From positions 1,922,001-1,986,000 of the forward strand of contig OX597822.1 of the NCBI GenBank assembly GCA_951406725.2: 64,000 nucleotides of DNA. Reading direction: 5' to 3'. Positions 11,481 to 39,641 of the stretch are shown here, in pieces. Numbering within the stretch: the stretch's first letter is position 1; every line of letters starts with the position of its first letter. The notes beneath the pieces are model-generated. The model had not been told where the DNA came from, made no database searches, and saw only the letters and a program-made list of their open reading frames with translations. The position numbers and the translations under genes were made by a program. Source of the DNA: Octopus vulgaris (Eukaryota).

Positions 11481-12027
11481 AATAAAAGATATGTATATGC
11501 ATATAAGTATGTGTGCATGTATATACATATATACTAGCAGCAAATACACAGGGTTTTTTATTAAACCCAGTTTCACCACTCTCGTAGGGCCAGAAAACGA
11601 TAGAAACGTAAATCAAATCTCTTAAGGGAGGGCAGTCAACTAAAATTAATGTTTCCTCAAAATTCAAAATAGCATTTTTCATATTCTACTTTATGTGTCG
11701 TGTAACAACGTAAATATTCATTTTATTGATATCCACCTGCTTTATGTCAGAAGTGCAGGCAGCCATAAGTTATTCGCATGCTCATACATGGTTTTATGCG
11801 TAACTACATCGATGCATAGATACCCAGACGAATACAGCCATCGACAGCTATATAAGTTTCACTTGATTTCATTCTCTCTTCCCCTCACTCTGTTCAGCAT
11901 CCCCCCTTGTATACATATGTAGATAAATAGATATACCTTCTCTGATCTATTCGTAACATATATGCATATTTGTATGTCTGTGTGAAGAACGCCAAGGTAA
12001 CTCTATTTATCTACATATGTATGTATA

Positions 12028-12245
12028 CAAGGGGGTGCTGAAAAGGTCTTGGCTTTGGGTAAAAGAAAATACGGGGGGTGTCAGTTAATTATGATTCTAT
12101 TCAACATATTCCCCTCTCAGATTTATACACTTATTGCAGTGACCCTTCAGTTTTTCTAACCCCTTAAAAAGAACTTGGGAGGTTGGGTCTCCAACCAGGC
12201 CTTTCGTGATACCCTTAAAGCCAGAAACCTTTCAACACTCGCTCG
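12028..12245. mobile_element. Mariner-like MITE of ~220 bp, copy 1
   Basis: TA-flanked imperfect TIRs caagggggtgctgaaaagg... / ...cctttcaacactcgctcg; body shared with 32550 and 35513. Confidence 0.8.
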
Positions 12246-12334
12246 TATATATGTGTGTTTATGTGTCTGTGTGAAGAACGTACAGGTATATCTATTTATC
12301 GCTATGTATGTACATATATAGACATCCTTGCATA

Positions 12335-12585
12335 TACATAATTTACATTATTTATATTTGACGGATATTTGTCCTCATCTTGCTTGTTGTTAACTCAACG
12401 TTTCGGCTGATATACCCTCCACAGACTTCATCAGGTGTCTATGGGGAAATTTCAAACCTGGGTTCTCATTACTAAGGTATTTTTCGATGTTGTTGTTGTT
12501 GTTCAAGTTACTGCCTGGAATCGAACCCGGAATCTTGGGATTAGTAGCCTACGCTTGGAGTTTGTAGCCAGTACGCCATATGCCC
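12335..12585 (-). mobile_element. tRNA-derived SINE with a hammerhead/PLE-like tail (H2), head-complete copy
   Basis: Minus strand GGGCATATGGCGTACTGG (A box 12578-12568), GGTTCGATTCC (B box 12527-12517), (AAC)n linker, then CTGATGA...GAAACGTT (12434-12397). Confidence 0.7.
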
Positions 12586-12742
12586 AGGTTCGAAATTTCC
12601 CCCAAGACACCTGATGAAGGCTGGAGGTTATATCAGCCGAAACGTTGTGTTAACAACAAACAAGATGAGGACAAATATCGGCAATTGTAAATAATGTAAA
12701 TGATGTAGATAATTCCTCATCTCTTAAATATAGAACTGTATT
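12583..12742 (+). mobile_element. Inverted 5'-truncated duplicate of H2 with a longer 3' tail
   Basis: Inverted repeat of 12335-12462; whole unit flanked by atccttgcatat (12324-12335) / atctttgcatat (12743-12754). Confidence 0.75.
12606..12651 (+). ncRNA. Intact minimal type I hammerhead ribozyme (H2)
   Basis: Stem I gacac/gtgtt; CTGATGA-A; stem II GGCTG/CAGCC; GAAAC-GTT with palindromic AACGTT. Confidence 0.8.
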
Positions 12743-15700
12743 ATCTTTGCATATGTAATACTATTAATATAGAAATTTATATTTATGTATATAAACAATT
12801 TTGAACTAAGTGAGGCTAGATTCAATAGTATTCGTTTTCATACGGCGCTCGCTGTTACCGTCAATGAGGTCGATTTTGTCGTTCATTCTTAAAAATCTAC
12901 ACATTTAAGGTACGCAATTAATGAAAACGTAAGAATGTCAGATCTCCGCATGAAGATATCTTTGTTGTTCTCTAAGGGAAGACGTGCAGGGAAGCGTCGC
13001 GGATATTGATTTCGGGCTGACCACAAATAACAAAAACAAGTTCACAAAACATTAAACAGTAACTTCGAAGTTTTGTAGACATGGTCCTTCAAATTACTTC
13101 AACTTACGGCTGACGTTTAATGCGTGCATACATGCATACGCACATACACATATATCCTATATACGTAGCCATGCATATGAATATATGAGTGTGTATGTGT
13201 GTATATATGTATATATGTGTATATATATTTATGCATGTATATACATGTATATCCACACACACACACACACACACACACATACATATATATGTTGAACTGC
13301 GCATGGCTTTAAATAAGGAGAAGAATATCAGAAAATTACATAGAACCTTATGCTGGGATCAGCGAAACCGGATTCAGGTCTCCGTTAGCCATGATTATTT
13401 TTCCTATACTCCAAACAGTAAAACAAAACTTTTAACCGCAACGCTGTGTGTGTGTGTGTGTGTGTGTGTTCGTGTGTGCGCGTGTGTATGCGTGTGTTTG
13501 CGTGAGTGCATATGTATGTATTCATTTATGTATGTATGTGTGTATGTATATGCAGATCTAGATCACATTCGTGATTCATTTATAACCAAAGTTATCCACA
13601 CCTGTACCAATGAAGCTGCTGAAAATAAAAAAATTATATATTTTGATTTTAGTCGTGGATCAGTTTCGTTCTTTGAAAACAGTCATACGAATGTTTCTGT
13701 CTCTAATCTTTATTTTAAAAATTGGTGCCTTAGCCTACGTCTAAATTGTTAAAGAATAATCTATGTTATCTGTCTAAGACGAGATCTGTAACAGAATTCT
13801 GACCAGTTCAGTGGTATACTATGTATTAAAAGCTTTCACTTACGTCATGTTTTAACTTTAAGACAAAGTGACATTTTTCAAAGTCGTGTAAATGTCTGAA
13901 TAGAACCAGTGAGCATTTTTATTTCTACTGCGACATTTCTCTCTAAACCTCCTGTGCTTATAACATTTGACCATTCACCGATTCAATCACGGAACATCGG
14001 TAAAACGAGTTCATTATGATTGGTACTTCCGAACGTGTCACTTTTCAGCTAGTTGTATGTAATCTAAGGTCCCTGGCTTAGGACTATAAAGGCTTCAGGT
14101 ATTTTTACTATGCGACACCATTTGTAATTTATATCTGTGAAATGATTTTGGTTTTAGACTGCTGAATCAAATTCAGCATTGATTTTTGCTTATCATGACA
14201 ACATACCCTCGTTTGTTCTAATATTTAGTCTACTAAATCCCGATCACAATAAAACATTCCATACCCCAGAAGATACGCCTTTTCTAGTTCATAATGAAGG
14301 CGCTAATTTCAAGCATACCAATTTTCCCTAAAACATATATATCGACTCTTTTGCTGAGATTAGTAAAAACAGTCGCGCCTTCGATTTTAGCGTCTTTGAT
14401 AATAGTAGCCTTCATATATTCCTTACAGAACGTTTTAAAATGGCCACAAATAATTAACAAACTTAAAATGAATTTTGAGAAAATCTGTACTGGGCCTGTA
14501 ATTGCAGCTCACTCCTGAAGATAGATTTTCTCGATTCTTTTTTTTTCTCCCCGCCTGGGTGATGAACAAGGTAAATAATTTCACCAGAACATTGTAACTA
14601 AGTGGTATCACCGCGAATAGTTATTAGCGATGGCGAAGAATTTTTGGTATACACACAAAAAATTGTGTGACATATTTTATGAGAGACAGTCAAACAACCG
14701 CTGAAATAGGAGCCAAGATCTTTATCAAAACCTATCTGAAAGTTATTCATTGTGAAACATTTTTCTAAAATAAAAATAATAAAATTAATTTGGTCGTGTT
14801 GCACGTCATTGGTAAAATCAATATTCTATTTGTGACGATAACATTTCTATATAGTTTGAAGAAATTCCAAAGTTACATAAATTGTGTATTTCCCAAGCTG
14901 TAGCTGGTTTACAAACATTAATATTATCTTCTTTGTAATTAGCAATAAAAAATCTATAAGAATCAATATATTGGTCTCCTGATAGAGAAAATGGGTCATT
15001 TTCTTAAAGGATCGTTAAGCTATGCCTTTGATGAGAAAAATCAAGGAAAAGTAGTACAGCTCTGAATCTCAAACAATTTAGCTGATGCTGAAAATGAGGA
15101 TCATTTATTGTAATCAATGATACAGAATACATTAAAATCGACTGGTTTTGACTCCAATGGAATTCGACTGCTTATATAACCAGCCATGAATTTCTCCAAT
15201 GAAAGAGAAAAGTACCAAAAATCAGCTCCTGCGATGCGTGTCAGACATAAAGCAGAAAAACATGAGGTACTTACTCTTTAATGGTTGCCTCTGGCATCAG
15301 AACAGAACCATCCTGAATTGAAATTATTAACTCTATAAATATCTTTAAGGGGGACTTTAGACAGTACAGGTGAGAAATTAAGTAAAAATTCTAAAACAAT
15401 GCGAATAAATAAAGATGAACAGAATATAATGTGCTACACGTCATAGGTTGTTTGATGCTTTTATTTTATTTCGAGAAATTTCACCTATATCAAAAATACT
15501 TTTGAAAATAATCCAAGATTTCTGAAGAAAAAAGTTATAATCGGCAGGCAATCTGATGTGTGGTGACTTTAATTTTTAGAAAATGTATAATTTATATTCT
15601 CGCTCGGTTTGTTTCGTGCCTCTGTTGCGATTGCATGCAAAAATAAGGAGAATGGTATATGGACTTTGTTAGTACGAATAGGTTCCGTTGATGAAGGTAG

Positions 15701-19510: not shown

Positions 19511-21413
19511 TCAATCTCTCACAATGGACGGACGATAGTCATATCGGCTCCACGTAAGTTGGCCACTTTTACATGTTTAAAACTCCTTGTTGTCAAATAT
19601 TTTGTTTTAATCGTTGTGCAAGTTCATTCACTAAAAAACCTGAGAATTATTCACGTAGAATTCCGCCCCTGTATGGGCGAAATTACAAAAAAAACTTTCA
19701 AAACTTTCGTGGGTTTTTTAGCCATTTTTCATTTTGAAAATGGCAACTAGAAACCACGTGGCTAGCCCGCCAGTCATGCAGAACGGTAGCAAAACACTAT
19801 TGCTACCACTAACTACTAAACATCGCAGCGTGAACACCGCTGTCACCACCATCACCACCACCAACAACAACAAATCTAACGCCGCATTCACCATCGCCGC
19901 GACCAAAGACATTAACTTAGATTTCCCCTCACTCCCCACACCACTTGTTGATGATAAAGGGACAGAGAAAGGGATTTCAAAAATGAATACAAACGAAAAC
20001 ATGAATGCCAGCACCACCACCATCACCACCAACAACAACAACAACGAAATTGGCACAAAGCCGCCTACCAAAGACAACACCGCCAACACCAACACCACTA
20101 CTACGACGTCAAATGCTACATCCAAGCCTTCTACTGCTAATACCGCCAACACCAACACCACTACCATGACTTCAATTAACACTGCCACAATTAACACTTC
20201 TACTGCCAAATTCAAAACGAATTTTGCGGACGTAACAAAACAAAAAAGAACAATTGTAACATTCACCACACAAGAGATAAACCGCGCAAAGGCACTCTTC
20301 TCCAAAGAAGGAGACAAATTGCACCTTCACATTCCACAACACATCGTGGAAAACACCAAAAAAAAAACAATAATTTATAAAGTAATAAACAAAAAAACAA
20401 GAAGAACAGAAAATGCACCGCAGGAAAAAATCGAAAAATGCCTTCGTCCTGCATGGGACTCCAAGGAATATATCAGTTGGGGAAACAAATTTGGTACAGT
20501 CCAAGTACGTTTCCTCAACGAAAGTTTAGCAAAACGTTTTTCCACATTGGAGCTACATTCGGACGACTTGGTAATGATACCAGTCTATTTAAACAAAAGG
20601 GTCACGAAAGTCCAAATAAAAAACATACCATTTGATGTCGAAACACAATGGTTGGTCTCTGCCATCTGCTTTGAAATGTCAGAGACAATGTCAGAGACAA
20701 ACATCCTGGAAATCGCGGTTCTAGGAGAGAAAGACTATGTGGGCAAATCAATCGAATTCCTGCTTCAATTGGATGAAGCAGCAAGAGAGAAGATACCCAC
20801 CTCTATAGAACTGCCAGGAGGCTACAAACTCTATATAGTGGTTGAGGGCAGGCGACCACGCTGCTATTTGTGTGGAAGCGAAACACACTTGAAAAAGACG
20901 TGCCCAACCACTGCACACCAAGAGCAACAACAACAACCACTACCACAACCAAAGCACTCCGGAAAAAAGCTCTACTACCCACACCACCATCAACACAGAA
21001 GACGACAAGAGAAGCACACCAAGCTAATCCGTCATCAACCAAAAACCACTCAACACCTGGAAAAATACCAACACCACCAACAACAGCAAAACCCAAAGGA
21101 ACAGAAAAACAAAGAAAACACACACAAACTGATCCCCCATCCCTTATACCGCACTCAACACACACAAACACTCAACAACCAACAACAACGAAAACAACAA
21201 CACAACCACTTACACAGACATACATAGAAGCCCACAACATACCCCTACCCCCTTCTGATTCCTCAGAAATTTCGTCGGAAGACGAAACCAGTGAGGAATG
21301 GCAAATAGCTACAAAAAGAAGGAAAATAAAGAGCAGAAACACAACCAAACCAAATGCAAACACGAACAAAGCAGGGGGAAATATATCTCCCGAAGACATT
21401 TCAAAACCCAACG
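19511..21413 (+). mobile_element. 5' part of a Tx1/L1-type LINE (5' UTR plus ORF1), cut by the gap
   Basis: Starts right after (CTAT)n at 19451-19510; long ORF1-like frame with a zinc knuckle. Confidence 0.7.
19740..21413 (+). pseudogene. LINE ORF1 gag-like nucleic-acid-binding protein with one frameshift near 20910-20950
   Basis: Thr/Asn-rich N-terminus, RRM-like region (TKVQIKNIPFDV), CCHC knuckle CYLCGSETHLKKTC at 20862-20903; continues in the 20870 frame as a Pro/Thr-rich tail ending SSEDETSEEWQIATKRRK. Confidence 0.75.
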
Positions 21414-21513
21414 NNNNNNNNNNNNNNNNNNNNNNNNNNNNNNNNNNNNNNNNNNNNNNNNNNNNNNNNNNNNNNNNNNNNNNNNNNNNNNNNNNNNNNN
21501 NNNNNNNNNNNNN
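21414..21513. other. Assembly gap (100 N)
   Basis: Run of N between two different LINEs in opposite orientation. Confidence 1.
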
Positions 21514-23026
21514 TGCCGTGCAGAGGTTTCTCCTCCCACCTATCAGCCAATTGCTCGTGCGCTTTTTTCGTTGCCATTATTTTTACCTTCTTTGCAACAA
21601 TAGTTGCCGTACTTCCCTCGGGTTGTTCAGTTTGGGTATCCTGCACGAGATCCATAGCAAATCTTTTGCTTTCCTTTATGATAGAATGAAGCTTCTTTCG
21701 TCTCTCGTGATTTTCCACGTGCTTTAGCATCCAGTCATTCGATATTTTGAGATATTTGGCCAGTCCAATTGTGGTTGTTTTGTAAGCTAGTTCAAATTGG
21801 ATCAGGCCTCGACCTCCTTGGGCTCTGGGAATGTAAAGGCGATCTACGTCTGCCTTTGGGTGGTGCATCCTATTACAACTCAGTAGCTTGCGTATTTTTC
21901 TATCTATATTCTTTACTTCACTGATATTCCAGTTCAACACATTGTAGCTATAAGTAACAACTGGAACTGCTAAGGAATTTATAGCTAACACCTTGTTACG
22001 TGCATTTAGTTCAGATTTCAGGACTGCACGAACTCTCCTATAACATTCCTTCCTGGTTTTCTCTTTCATGCTTGCATGCTGAATACCAGAGCCTTCATTT
22101 ATCCCTAAATATTTGTATGTTTGTTCTTGCTCAAGCTCTCTTATGACTGTGTCAACATCTAACACGACTGAATTTGTGGTCTTCACTTTCCCTTTCTGGA
22201 AAGTGGCCTTGGCACACTTCTCAAGTCCAAACTCCATCCCGATGTCATCGCTGAATGCTTTCACGGTGCGCAATAGGCCTTCAAGTTCATTATTGTCTTT
22301 ACCATAAAGTTTTAAGTCATCCATATAAAATAGATGGCTTATTTTTTTATTGGCAATTTTATACCCATACCCTGTTCTGTTTAATTCACTTGTAAGGGGT
22401 ATTAGGGCTATGCAGAATATTAAAGGTGAAAGTGAGTCACCTTGAAAAATTCCACAGTTGATGTTTATATTTTCTGGAGGCAAGTACTCCATTAGAGTGG
22501 TATAATTGGAGATTCGTATTCCACAACGACATATTGTGTTTCAGGAAGTTTGAAATCACAGGGGAAATTTTGAAGATGTCCAGCGATCTCAAGATCCATG
22601 GATGCGGTATACTGTCGAAGGCCTTTTTGTAGTCAATCCATGCGGTGCTGAGATTTCTGCGTTTGTTGTGACAGTTCTCAAGGATCATACGATTGATTAG
22701 CAGTTGATCTTTGCATCCGTAAGAGCCTCGGCGGCACCCTTTTTGTTCAATGGGGAAAATATCGTTCTTCTCCATGAATGCATATGTTTTCTCCGCCAGG
22801 ATAGATGTTAGGATTTTATACGTGGTGGATAGACAGGTTATAGGCCGATAGTTTTTTGGAAGGTTGGTTTCGTTATTCTTTGGGAGTAGGTAAGTAATGC
22901 CACTTGCTAACCATTCAGGTGTTTTCTTTGGGTCTCTCATAATTCCATTGAGCAGCTGAACTAGCTTACCGTGTGCGCATGGGAGCGATGCGAGCCAGAA
23001 ATTCGGCACCCTATCTTTACCGGGGG
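21514..23026 (-). mobile_element. R4/Dong-type non-LTR retrotransposon RT region, 5'-truncated, one frameshift near 22480
   Basis: NYRPITCL, EQKGC, WIDYKKAFDSIPH, GIFQGDSLSP, HLFYMDDLKLY, YKYLG, RLYIPRAQGGRGL; 5' end abuts (TAA)n at 23027-23052. Confidence 0.92.
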
Positions 23027-28545: not shown

Positions 28546-28782
28546 AACTAAACAATCGCATTTACTCGATGATTCAATTCAATTAAAATTTGAACGAAAG
28601 AAACTGGAACTGCACCTTATATTCGGTAAGTATTGTGATCAGTATTGGCATGTTTCGGTTTTATAAAACCTCCTCAGAACAGGATAGACTTACTACAAGT
28701 TATAAGTCTCTAGATGCCGGGTTTCGCACTCTATTGCTTGTACTCATTCGCAATAACTCGATAATTCAAATCAATTAAAATA
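28546..28782 (-). mobile_element. Retrozyme-like ~190-nt unit (H4) with partial tandem repeat
   Basis: aatcgcatttactcgatgattcaattcaattaaaat recurs ~192 bp later; carries an HHR; second copy at 29878-30090. Confidence 0.6.
28643..28681 (-). ncRNA. Minimal hammerhead motif, H4 copy 1
   Basis: Minus strand tgtt-CTGAGGA-GGTTTTATAAAACC-GAAAC-AT-GCC-aata; cleavage triplet mutated. Confidence 0.55.
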
Positions 28783-29877: not shown

Positions 29878-30090
29878 ACAAATTAAACAATCGCAATGAC
29901 TCGATAATTCAAATAAATTAAAATATAAACACGAGTAATTGGAAGCGAGCTTATATTTGGCAAGTACTGTAATAGCTATTGACGTGTTTCGGTATTATTA
30001 AACTTCTTCAGCACAGGATAATATTACTATGACTTACAAGAACCTAGATGTTGGGTTTCGCACTGCACTGCTTTCACCCATTCAATTTAT
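29878..30090 (-). mobile_element. H4 unit, copy 2
   Basis: Colinear with 28546-28750. Confidence 0.6.
29976..30016 (-). ncRNA. Minimal hammerhead motif, H4 copy 2
   Basis: Minus strand ctgtg-CTGAAGA-AGTTTAATAATACC-GAAAC-AC-GTC-aatag; intact core and GUC, weakened stems. Confidence 0.55.
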
Positions 30091-38272: not shown

Positions 38273-39142
38273 TATATAATATAAACACATCAATAATAGA
38301 TTAGATTTGAACCAATCTATTATATGGTATAAATTAAAATTAAGTTATTGGAGATAGCTGAAAATTGTGGGAGCAGCTGTGAGGAGATTTTAATATCTTT
38401 AATTAATCGATTCCTGAATTTTAATGAGAATCTTCTGGACCAATTTCCACAACCAAGACCTGTAAGCAAGGATTCAGTCTGTACATAGGGCTCGAAGAAC
38501 CAAGAAGAGGTTCGTGAATGAAAACGCACACAGCACTCTTGAACACGTAGATGATGCCCCTTGAGATAGGAGTAAAAACTGTTTTGTATTGCCTTGGAAT
38601 ATTTTCCTTTGATGCTTTGACCATCACCCATGAGATGGAAGGGATATATTCATTTCATAAGCAATGATGGTTAATGGCACGCGTACGCACATACACACAC
38701 ACACAGGTACACAGGTACACACACACAGGTACACACACACAGGTACACAGACACACTGACACACACTCACATACATATATGCATACATAAATACATACAT
38801 ACATACACACAGACATACAAGAATATATAAACACCAACATTGTTTAAATCACGTGGATATCATTAAGCGAGGGCCGGTTGTTGTTGTTGTTGTTATCATC
38901 GTTATTGCTATTTACTCATTTATTTATTTAATTGATATCTAAACAGCTTAAACTCCGTGAAATGTTGGTAAAGCATGACAGACTGAGGAAGGTATAGAAT
39001 AACCTTTATACAAATAAACTAAAATTAAGATACAAAACTTGAGATAAGAGAAGAAAGAGAGAAAGTATTACTGATAACGAACGGTAAAAAATGGCTGATT
39101 GTTAGTAAGGAGAGACACACAAATAAGAAAGAAGAAAGCAAA

Positions 39143-39187
39143 GGACCACTGATGAGATCACAGAAGTGTGACGAAAGAACTCTGGCC
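39143..39187 (+). ncRNA. Minimal type I hammerhead motif (H5)
   Basis: ggacca-CTGATGA-g(a)tcaca-gaag-tgtgac-GAAA-gaa-CTC-tggcc; canonical core with all three stems present. Confidence 0.6.
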
Positions 39188-39641
39188 GAAATAAGATTAA
39201 GATTAATGTAAAAAATAAAGGTGAAGCAAATTTACACCAAATGTATAGTGCGTGTGTTTTTATTGGTTAAACAGGCAAAATGACCGTTCCTAAAAACAAC
39301 AATAAGAACAGTAAAACGTTTCCGTTAAATCTATTTGTAATCTCCATGAATTGTAACAGTTCATTACAGTTCATAGTTCATTGAAATTTAATTGCTTTCT
39401 CGAATTTAGACAAGTTTAGAAAGAAACGATCAAATATATAGTGGTACCATCGTCCCTCTGTCTGTGAGGATCTTTTAAATGACAATACCCCCGATAGCCC
39501 TGAATATATGTGATCAGTTGGAGGTCCCCCTTTGGGTGCTGTTGAGAATGCCAGTGTTAAGGGTGGGATGTAATTTTCATAGGCTGACTCTGAAGAAGTA
39601 ATTCTTGAGAAGGGAAATCTTACAAAGCCATAATGCATTTA

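Follow-up and report, generated by a model that had tools for sequence, protein, structure and literature searches.

Head-to-head short copies in Octopus vulgaris are terminal repeats of a coding Penelope-type retrotransposon with a tRNA-derived head

Introduction

We studied a composite repeat at positions 12324–12754 of a 64,000-nt stretch of the Octopus vulgaris genome (GenBank assembly GCA_951406725.2, contig OX597822.1, positions 1,922,001 to 1,986,000 of the forward strand; hereafter the window). The repeat joins a tRNA-like head to a hammerhead ribozyme, and an initial annotation, made from the sequence alone, had read it as a short interspersed element (SINE) mobilised by a Penelope-like enzyme instead of a long interspersed element (LINE). 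The locus thus raises the question of whether the unit is an independent SINE that borrowed the 3' end of a Penelope-like element (PLE), or a part of such an element. We found that it is, almost certainly, a pair of head-to-head pseudo-long terminal repeats (pLTRs) of a coding Penelope/Poseidon-type retrotransposon. The short copies of the family are solo pLTR units of that coding element; they are SINE-like in their working, yet do not form a separate SINE family. The short RNA that was copied into them probably began at the tRNA head under RNA polymerase III (Pol III).

Structure of the composite insertion

The unit consists of two arms of one repeat in opposite orientation, 88.5% identical to each other over 131 nt (Table 1). 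The minus arm (12585–12338) carries the tRNA-like head with A and B boxes, the (AAC)n linker and a hammerhead, as first described, and the plus arm (12583–12746) is indeed a 5'-truncated partner joined to it head to head, with the three nucleotides CCC shared at the junction. The arms end at +129 (minus) and +162 (plus) from the ATG of the open reading frame (ORF) presented below; the longer end of the plus arm was therefore correctly recognised, while its excess measures 33 nt and not about 35. A target site duplication (TSD) of 12 bp with one mismatch flanks the unit, in agreement with the 11–12 bp initially proposed, and the first 4 nt of its right copy also fit the element's own continuation.

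A coding parent element

The parent was found via a distant reverse transcriptase (RT) fragment beside one short copy (L020), which led to a family with 3,971 candidates, 150 of them scored. In 18 out of 30 RT-anchored loci, the tRNA head lay downstream of the RT in the orientation of the ORF, 17 of them after identical ORF-end sequence; the remaining loci had only the tail sequence at that place (2 loci) or no 3' repeat on the same strand (10 loci). The majority of 42 copies gave a single open frame of 835 aa that starts from an ATG inside the linker. The first base of the head lies 30 nt after the ORF stop (29 nt between them), on the same strand, and the order of the element is ORF stop, 29 nt, tRNA head, (AAY)n, ATG, hammerhead, tail and the rest of the ORF. 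In six loci (L103, L124, L128, L252, L260 and L265), the pLTR flanked the ORF on both sides and overlapped its start.

The hammerhead and the tail are coding, because the 835-aa frame opens at the ATG in the linker: the peptide that is read from them in the window (from 12598 on) aligned to the N-terminus of a 57% identical, full-length protein of other origin, P0003. The tail, which had been described as AT-rich, is actually protein-coding sequence of the parent element, and the expectation that an autonomous PLE would share the hammerhead tail was confirmed by the 835-aa ORF element, which carries it at the ORF start. A LINE-derived tail was rejected, since the 3' part corresponds to the beginning of a PLE coding sequence and not to a LINE 3' untranslated region (UTR).

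The ORF gave an RVT_1 match, below the curated cut-off, in L121, and had 1,564 homologues. P0001, P0002, P0003 and P0005 are relatives with 55–68% identity. A GIY-YIG-like motif was located at aa 727–742; PF01541 was assigned to 3 out of 120 homologues among the matches listed, and L121, P0001 and P0003 had no match to it. The structure comparison returned no matching solved structure. The ORF was about 25–30% identical to the other PLE ORFs of this genome, and a tree, in which named references were not included, separated the ORF family from the L081 and L082 families with full support. The Poseidon and Neptune labels that we use for families here are those that we take to apply from their architecture.

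Copies were at the median 93.7% identical to the majority sequence and none of those examined was intact; the family is old and decayed, and therefore has no evident current activity. Copies running past the tail into the ORF were rare (72 exact matches just past the tail versus 6,078 at the tail end). When 80 short heads were compared with 48 ORF-attached heads, the majority base was identical at every position and no fixed diagnostic base was found. Contigs of organisms B and D, with loose ends at 970, also contained the junction between the ORF end and the head.

Other candidates for the parent were PLE families from a GIY-YIG search of the genome (150 out of 6,136 candidates scored), which were rejected: the hammerhead tail formed their own end in none of the 40 loci examined, and one of the loci of that search, L098, had a separate copy of the hammerhead tail nearby. 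A head-less second Poseidon-type family, to serve as a control within the genome, was sought among 17 lower-scoring matches, all of which belonged to the tRNA-headed family. Metagenome relatives (8 loci, 34–42% identity) gave no tRNA call, their sequences being too diverged and too brief to bear on generality. A second Penelope-like family of this genome (L081:1245–3587 in G000:C16, and the GIY-YIG search) had many intact 781-aa frames and looks recently active; presumably it is Neptune-like. Its 3' region contains a variant hammerhead-like motif (at about L081:4540–4610).

Family size, spread and origin of the head

The genome searched comprised 2.8 Gb in 227 contigs. A 21-mer of the long 3' end had 6,078 exact matches, versus none for the reversed control, which sets a floor for the size of the family, and about 47,000 loci were estimated genome-wide, with a wide error, by extrapolation from 10 loci in 600 kb of evenly spaced samples. 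In 23 out of 30 loci chosen by a head 21-mer, the tail followed the head on the same strand, so that head and hammerhead tail are colinear as one family unit, as had been proposed. The other 7 loci ended within the head, the repeat or the linker, and no alternative tail was common to them. The recurrence of the head-tail unit across loci, genome-wide, rules out a one-off chimera in which the head met this tail only in the window.

The family was present in sequencing runs carrying four organism labels; three other-organism runs cover head, tail and ORF, and the contigs of sequencing run X20, which may be an RNA run, cover the element but do not bear on its expression. Among the runs listed with the family, none is recorded as RNA. 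An assembly artefact is ruled out by the TSD, the diverged arms, the thousands of loci and the four organism labels.

The head had 50–52 identical bases in about 75 (67–69%) with genomic tRNA-Arg genes, in a comparison with 59 distinct sampled tRNA calls that cover the isotypes incompletely. Both A and B boxes were intact in the family majority sequence. The acceptor stem of the head pairs poorly, and ARAGORN at a relaxed threshold called one head copy only. In the window ARAGORN made no tRNA call, Rfam assigned neither a hammerhead nor a tRNA to this unit at the gathering or E<=10 thresholds, and Rfam likewise gave no hammerhead or tRNA call at locus L227.

Insertion signature

We classified the 3' ends of 73 inverted pairs as long (+148 or beyond from the ATG) or short (+110 to +131). 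This set mixes best-match and unbiased loci, with L250 left out as a duplicate of L247. Sixty-four pairs combined a long with a short end, 2 had two short ends, none had two long ends and 7 were irregular. A TSD of at least 10 bp was found at 45 out of the 73 pairs, versus 2.2% of mismatched flank pairs, and the lengths peaked at 12–13 bp.

The same pattern was observed in 60 copies that were chosen by the long 3' end alone: 40 had an inverted partner, 36 of these partners ended at +117 to +129, and 21 of the 40 pairs had a TSD of at least 10 bp, compared to 1.9% of controls. The PLE-style inversion and duplication first seen at one locus therefore extend to the family, with 40 out of 60 copies in inverted pairs and the TSD peak given above.

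The two arms of a locus had 46 non-majority bases in common, versus 17 ± 4 between loci (shuffle maximum 30 in 2,000; 60 of the 73 pairs were usable and 13 were too short or diverged). Because of this excess of shared variants, one source for both arms fits the data; later gene conversion could contribute.

Two further observations concern the ends of copies. A 9-nt unit near the short 3' end was present in 1–5 copies (e.g. L032, L040 and L049) and in 1–3 copies in long arms, and priming slippage is possible. In L272, L277, L279, L281, L282 and L291 we found short direct arrays composed of a fragment of the ORF start (+207 to +388) and, after it, a head or tail copy. These arrays, which occur in a minority of copies, look like template jumps and may account for pLTR partial tandems.

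The 5' ends of copies and the depletion of T runs

Among the 60 long arms of the sample chosen by the long 3' end, 19 extended into the head; the others ended at the (AAY)n repeat (9) or within the tail or linker (32). When both arms were counted, 30 out of the 36 reaching head position +20 stopped between -14 and +19 of the first base of the head, where about 14% of stops would be predicted if copies were lost as fast as they are in the tail, at about 0.45% per nt. In head-anchored copies, 29 out of 30 stopped at -26 to +23; 4 out of 30 ended exactly at +1, and 9 out of 30 carried 3–7 upstream bases. Thirty copies anchored at -35 continued to between -40 and -780 (median about 350 nt). Three ORF-bearing copies with a 5' head were present among 30 loci, and two of those started at -2 (L274 and L286). 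Four loci jump from ORF sequence directly to the head, at -6 to +32.

A run of four T (T4) is a stop signal for Pol III. The 2,840-nt majority sense strand contained no T4 run versus 31 runs of four A, while 2.9–4.4 T4 runs are expected in the ORF (P 0.01–0.03, shuffles; about 0.02–0.03 for the 2.8-kb sense strand). Two other Penelope-type ORFs of this genome contained 9 and 8 T4 runs and eight distant relatives 41 in 9,235 nt, so that these other PLE ORFs have about 4 per kb.

Hammerhead motifs

The plus-arm hammerhead had been considered fully canonical. Its core is indeed full (12611–12617), but the motif is of the minimal Penelope type: stem I (12606–12610/12647–12651) and stem II (12619–12638) are accompanied by an extra A at 12618 and by a stem III that is a loopless palindrome, and the cut is predicted after 12646. 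In the minus-arm hammerhead, stems I and II contain mismatches, and folding predicts a wrong structure for it. In the 60-copy sample chosen by the long 3' end, the 3' ends of arms lay 60–95 nt beyond the ribozyme cut, which rules out the cut as the boundary of the element, and most arms reached 5' of the cut. The hammerhead thus sets neither end of the insert. Minimal hammerheads of the Penelope kind have been described as probable dimer cleavers (PMC6765202; here and below, articles are cited for the parts of them that were available).

Hammerhead-like motifs unrelated to the tRNA-headed family were also found in the window at 28600–28720 and 29930–30050 (minus strand), which resemble each other, and at 39120–39220 (plus strand).

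Other features of the window and of the family loci

Just to the left of the unit there are short inverted and direct repeats (11902–12035 and 11958–12011/12247–12314), possibly the ends of a separate element similar to miniature inverted-repeat transposable elements. An RT fragment on the minus strand (21401–22540; RVT_1, E 3e-13) was not Penelope-like by BLAST and is probably a LINE piece. Elsewhere, L305 (G000:C12:25267077–25270148) contained about 10 tRNA-Cys genes and variants densely packed in 3 kb. In L041, L042, L055, L057 and L103, one unrelated repeat lies inside the (AAY)n linker, which suggests an element targeting AAT microsatellites.

Table 1. Coordinates of the head-to-head unit and its parts in the window.
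Feature	Position	Strand	Remarks
Left TSD, 12 bp	12324–12335		One mismatch to right copy; family mode 12–13 bp
Arm 1, solo pLTR	12338–12585	-	tRNA +1 to short 3' end (+129 from ORF ATG)
Minimal type I hammerhead	12392–12439	-	Core intact, stems I and II damaged; sequence and folding
ATG	12467–12469	-	Corresponds to first Met of the parent 835-aa ORF
(AAC)5 linker	12489–12503	-	Family-wide (AAY)n, length very variable
tRNA-derived head	12504–12585	-	7-nt insertion relative to family majority; closest sampled tRNAs are tRNA-Arg
B box	12517–12527	-	
A box	12568–12578	-	
Microhomology at head-to-head junction, 3 nt	12583–12585		Identical junction in loci L002 and L017
Arm 2, 5'-truncated copy	12583–12746	+	ORF nt +8 to +162 (long 3' end), reading as ORF N-terminal peptide
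Minimal type I hammerhead	12606–12651	+	Sequence and folding; cleavage predicted only
Penelope "tail", about 33 nt	12714–12746	+	Plus arm only
Right TSD	12743–12754		First 4 nt overlap the element end

Proposed mechanism and alternative explanations

Pol III initiation at the tRNA head fits 5' ends that stop at the head together with a sense strand that has no TTTT, and on these sequence data we regard it as probable. We propose that the RT-endonuclease of the element would bind the RNA that encodes its own N-terminus, make staggered cuts, about 12 nt apart, in the two DNA strands, and start cDNA inside the RNA at two sites, one per DNA end, as the biochemistry of the Anolis Poseidon element suggests. 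The two cDNAs would then be joined head to head via a few matching bases. Because priming would be internal, a Pol III transcript would need neither poly-A nor a defined 3' end, and any pLTR whose A and B boxes are still functional would therefore act as a SINE-like source. The same promoter in a 5' pLTR may also read through the T-run-free ORF and yield a full-length template. Pol III transcription of the whole 2.8-kb coding unit would account for the missing T4 runs, but we hold it only tentatively. Equally tentative is the broader idea of an autonomous element that uses a tRNA gene as its promoter and would be its own SINE-LINE pair, each double-strand cut being filled by two cDNAs that are primed at two fixed sites of one source RNA.

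Several observations weigh against the proposed mechanism. As regards the boundary, 6 out of 36 arms run beyond it, the third ORF-bearing copy with a 5' head (L271) starts at -182, and the exact counts (977 upstream versus 3,681 in the head) indicate that about 15–25% of copies pass it and not 1 in 30, the head-anchored sample being biased to well-kept heads. The hammerhead core was intact in only 26 out of 74 arms that span it, and the arms of the window unit share no variants and differ in 6 of 101 columns. The lack of T runs is only suggestive, because unrelated ORFs here are also poor in T4 runs (1 in 863 codons in L164; none in about 300 codons in L154, L162 and L236). Pol III RNAs are normally untranslated. 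They are also usually short (PMC10886601), and the protein may therefore come from another transcript. Finally, a hairpin of -9.7 kcal/mol at -16 to +14 spans the junction between ORF end and head, and rotifer Penelope elements have palindromes at their pLTR 5' ends with no tRNA head (PMC3846280); the sharp boundary may therefore not need Pol III.

The hairpin would also suit the main alternative origin, in which the copies are ordinary Penelope pLTR stubs: the tRNA segment would be a passenger captured once in the 3' UTR, and cDNA from RNA polymerase II (Pol II) or read-through RNA would stop or fold back at the palindrome. Such stubs agree with the short, tail-less inverted pieces of the head in L034 and L228, with the palindromic 5' ends of the about 200-bp pLTRs of Adineta Pen2 and Pen3a (PMC3846280) and with the LINE-like internal promoter in the pLTR of D. 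virilis (PMC2377424). However, many ends lie at +1 to +8, where the hairpin could not yet have formed, the template jumps begin at the head, and the intact A and B boxes and the absence of T4 runs from the sense strand also speak against stubs, so that we consider this origin unlikely. One may speculate that the 5' arm of the hairpin, which resembles an inverted remnant of the head, records the capture of the head by the same head-to-head joining. If, instead, the tRNA-like fold served as a processing signal, RNase P or a similar enzyme would cut a long Pol II RNA at head +1 and the RT would copy the short products; this would explain the ends exactly at +1 (4 out of 30) and would sidestep the translation of a Pol III RNA. 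A cut at +1 would, however, remove the 3–7 upstream bases that 9 out of 30 ends keep, the poorly pairing acceptor stem and the single ARAGORN call do not favour such a fold, and the missing T4 runs would be left unexplained; we find it quite improbable.

The idea from which we started, if taken strictly as an independent lineage of tRNA-SINEs that has master genes of its own and borrows a Penelope enzyme, with the ORF-attached heads as later chimeras, is largely refuted, and we give it very little credence. The great excess of tail-end over past-tail matches (6,078 versus 72) would favour it, and so would the short heads being nearer to the majority (93.0% versus 89.6%), although head similarity had partly guided the choice of the short set. 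On the other hand, wherever RT-anchored copies extend to the 3' end, the head follows at a single fixed junction, which recurs in the contigs of organisms B and D, no fixed base distinguishes short from attached heads, and up to 7 nt of ORF-side flank is retained in many short copies. What stands of the initial annotation is the insertion, which is Penelope-type and not LINE-type; the separate SINE with a borrowed PLE 3' end does not, as the coding element carries the head in its own pLTR. Head-to-head pLTRs of a tRNA-headed coding element, copied from a short RNA begun at the head, thus remain our preferred explanation.

Comparison with known systems

The insertion pattern, the ribozyme and the pLTR layout are known features of PLEs (PMC8557442, PMC4209133, PMC3846280). 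Like the published Penelope/Poseidon elements (PMC11167929, PMC3846280, PMC2377424), the octopus element has a single ORF of about 835–840 aa with the RT before a C-terminal nuclease (putative in octopus), a pLTR overlapping the ORF start, a hammerhead at the ORF start, a one-sided tail of 30–40 nt that fits two internal RT starts, an inverted 5'-truncated partner and a TSD. In Anolis PAc, the hammerhead contains the start of the ORF, two internal RT start sites enclose the tail, and the enzyme cuts and extends both strands in vitro (PMC11167929); Adineta Pen2a has a comparable layout (PMC3846280). The difference lies in the promoter: the pLTR promoters of those elements are described as Pol II-like (TATA/Inr or LINE-like internal), whereas the octopus pLTR starts with a tRNA-derived A/B-box head and (AAY)n, and the octopus short copies start at that head. 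The TSDs of the Adineta examples are also shorter (8–10 bp, versus 12–13 bp in the octopus family; PMC3846280).

In common with the tRNA SINEs of SINEBase (PMC3531059), the octopus units are interspersed, short (under 1 kb) and present in numbers well above the 100 copies that SINEBase asks for, and the identity of the head to tRNA over about 75 nt lies above the 60% over 60 nt that SINEBase takes as its minimum. Unlike them, they have no partner LINE, their insertion marks being PLE-type, and no simple-repeat 3' tail, their 3' part being a PLE coding start; moreover, the unit also belongs to an autonomous element, so it is not a distinct non-autonomous family. Octopus SINEs named OK, OR1 and OR2 were reportedly described by Ohshima and Okada in 1994. 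The repeat may already bear a name, as one of these or as a Repbase, Dfam or SINEBase entry.

The Schistosoma Sm-alpha and Sj-alpha repeats likewise combine a Pol III promoter and a hammerhead in a short repeat, according to a review (PMC6765202), but they are tandem units freed by ribozyme cleavage. The octopus copies are dispersed, with 40 out of 60 in inverted pairs and not in head-to-tail tandems bounded by the ribozyme cut; their ends lie off that cut, and their parent ORF is identified. Other non-coding units that are akin to PLE pLTRs and mobilised by PLE enzymes are the animal non-LTR retrozymes (bioRxiv 10.64898/2026.07.22.740005) and non-autonomous members of the Chlamys group, for example MRC1 (PMC8557442). 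The retrozymes, however, form head-to-tail tandems, and the main text on them contains neither "tRNA" nor "Pol III" (bioRxiv 10.64898/2026.07.22.740005), while Chlamys elements lack canonical hammerheads (PMC8557442). The TRIMp3 elements Cassandra, Helenus and Ajax also have a Pol III promoter derived from a small RNA inside the terminal repeat; they are non-autonomous LTR elements whose autonomous partners are argued to need Pol II (PMC10886601), whereas in octopus the coding element itself bears the head.

No tRNA-headed PLE was found in the literature searched, mostly at title and abstract level, with thin coverage of subscription journals and with Repbase and Dfam outside its scope, and none is described in the available parts of PMC13282606 (with its supplement), PMC6962438, PMC4758252, PMC4209133 and PMC5786205. 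The novelty of the family would thus be its built-in tRNA-derived promoter, which is well motivated by the data.

Significance

By definition, SINEs are transcribed by Pol III and parasitise LINEs, and autonomous retrotransposons are units of Pol II. Both distinctions become blurred with a Penelope element that codes for protein and has a tRNA head in its terminal repeat, and this element shows how a PLE can directly give rise to SINE-like copies in the tens of thousands. In annotation, such copies would be filed as SINEs even though they are the ends of a PLE. The insertion step of PLEs is poorly understood; because of its high copy number, this family gives unusually clean statistics for it (one long and one short end, a 12–13-bp stagger and variants shared by the arms), and two-ended priming is therefore testable. 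If our reading is true, a tRNA promoter lets one element spawn its own SINE-like short copies.

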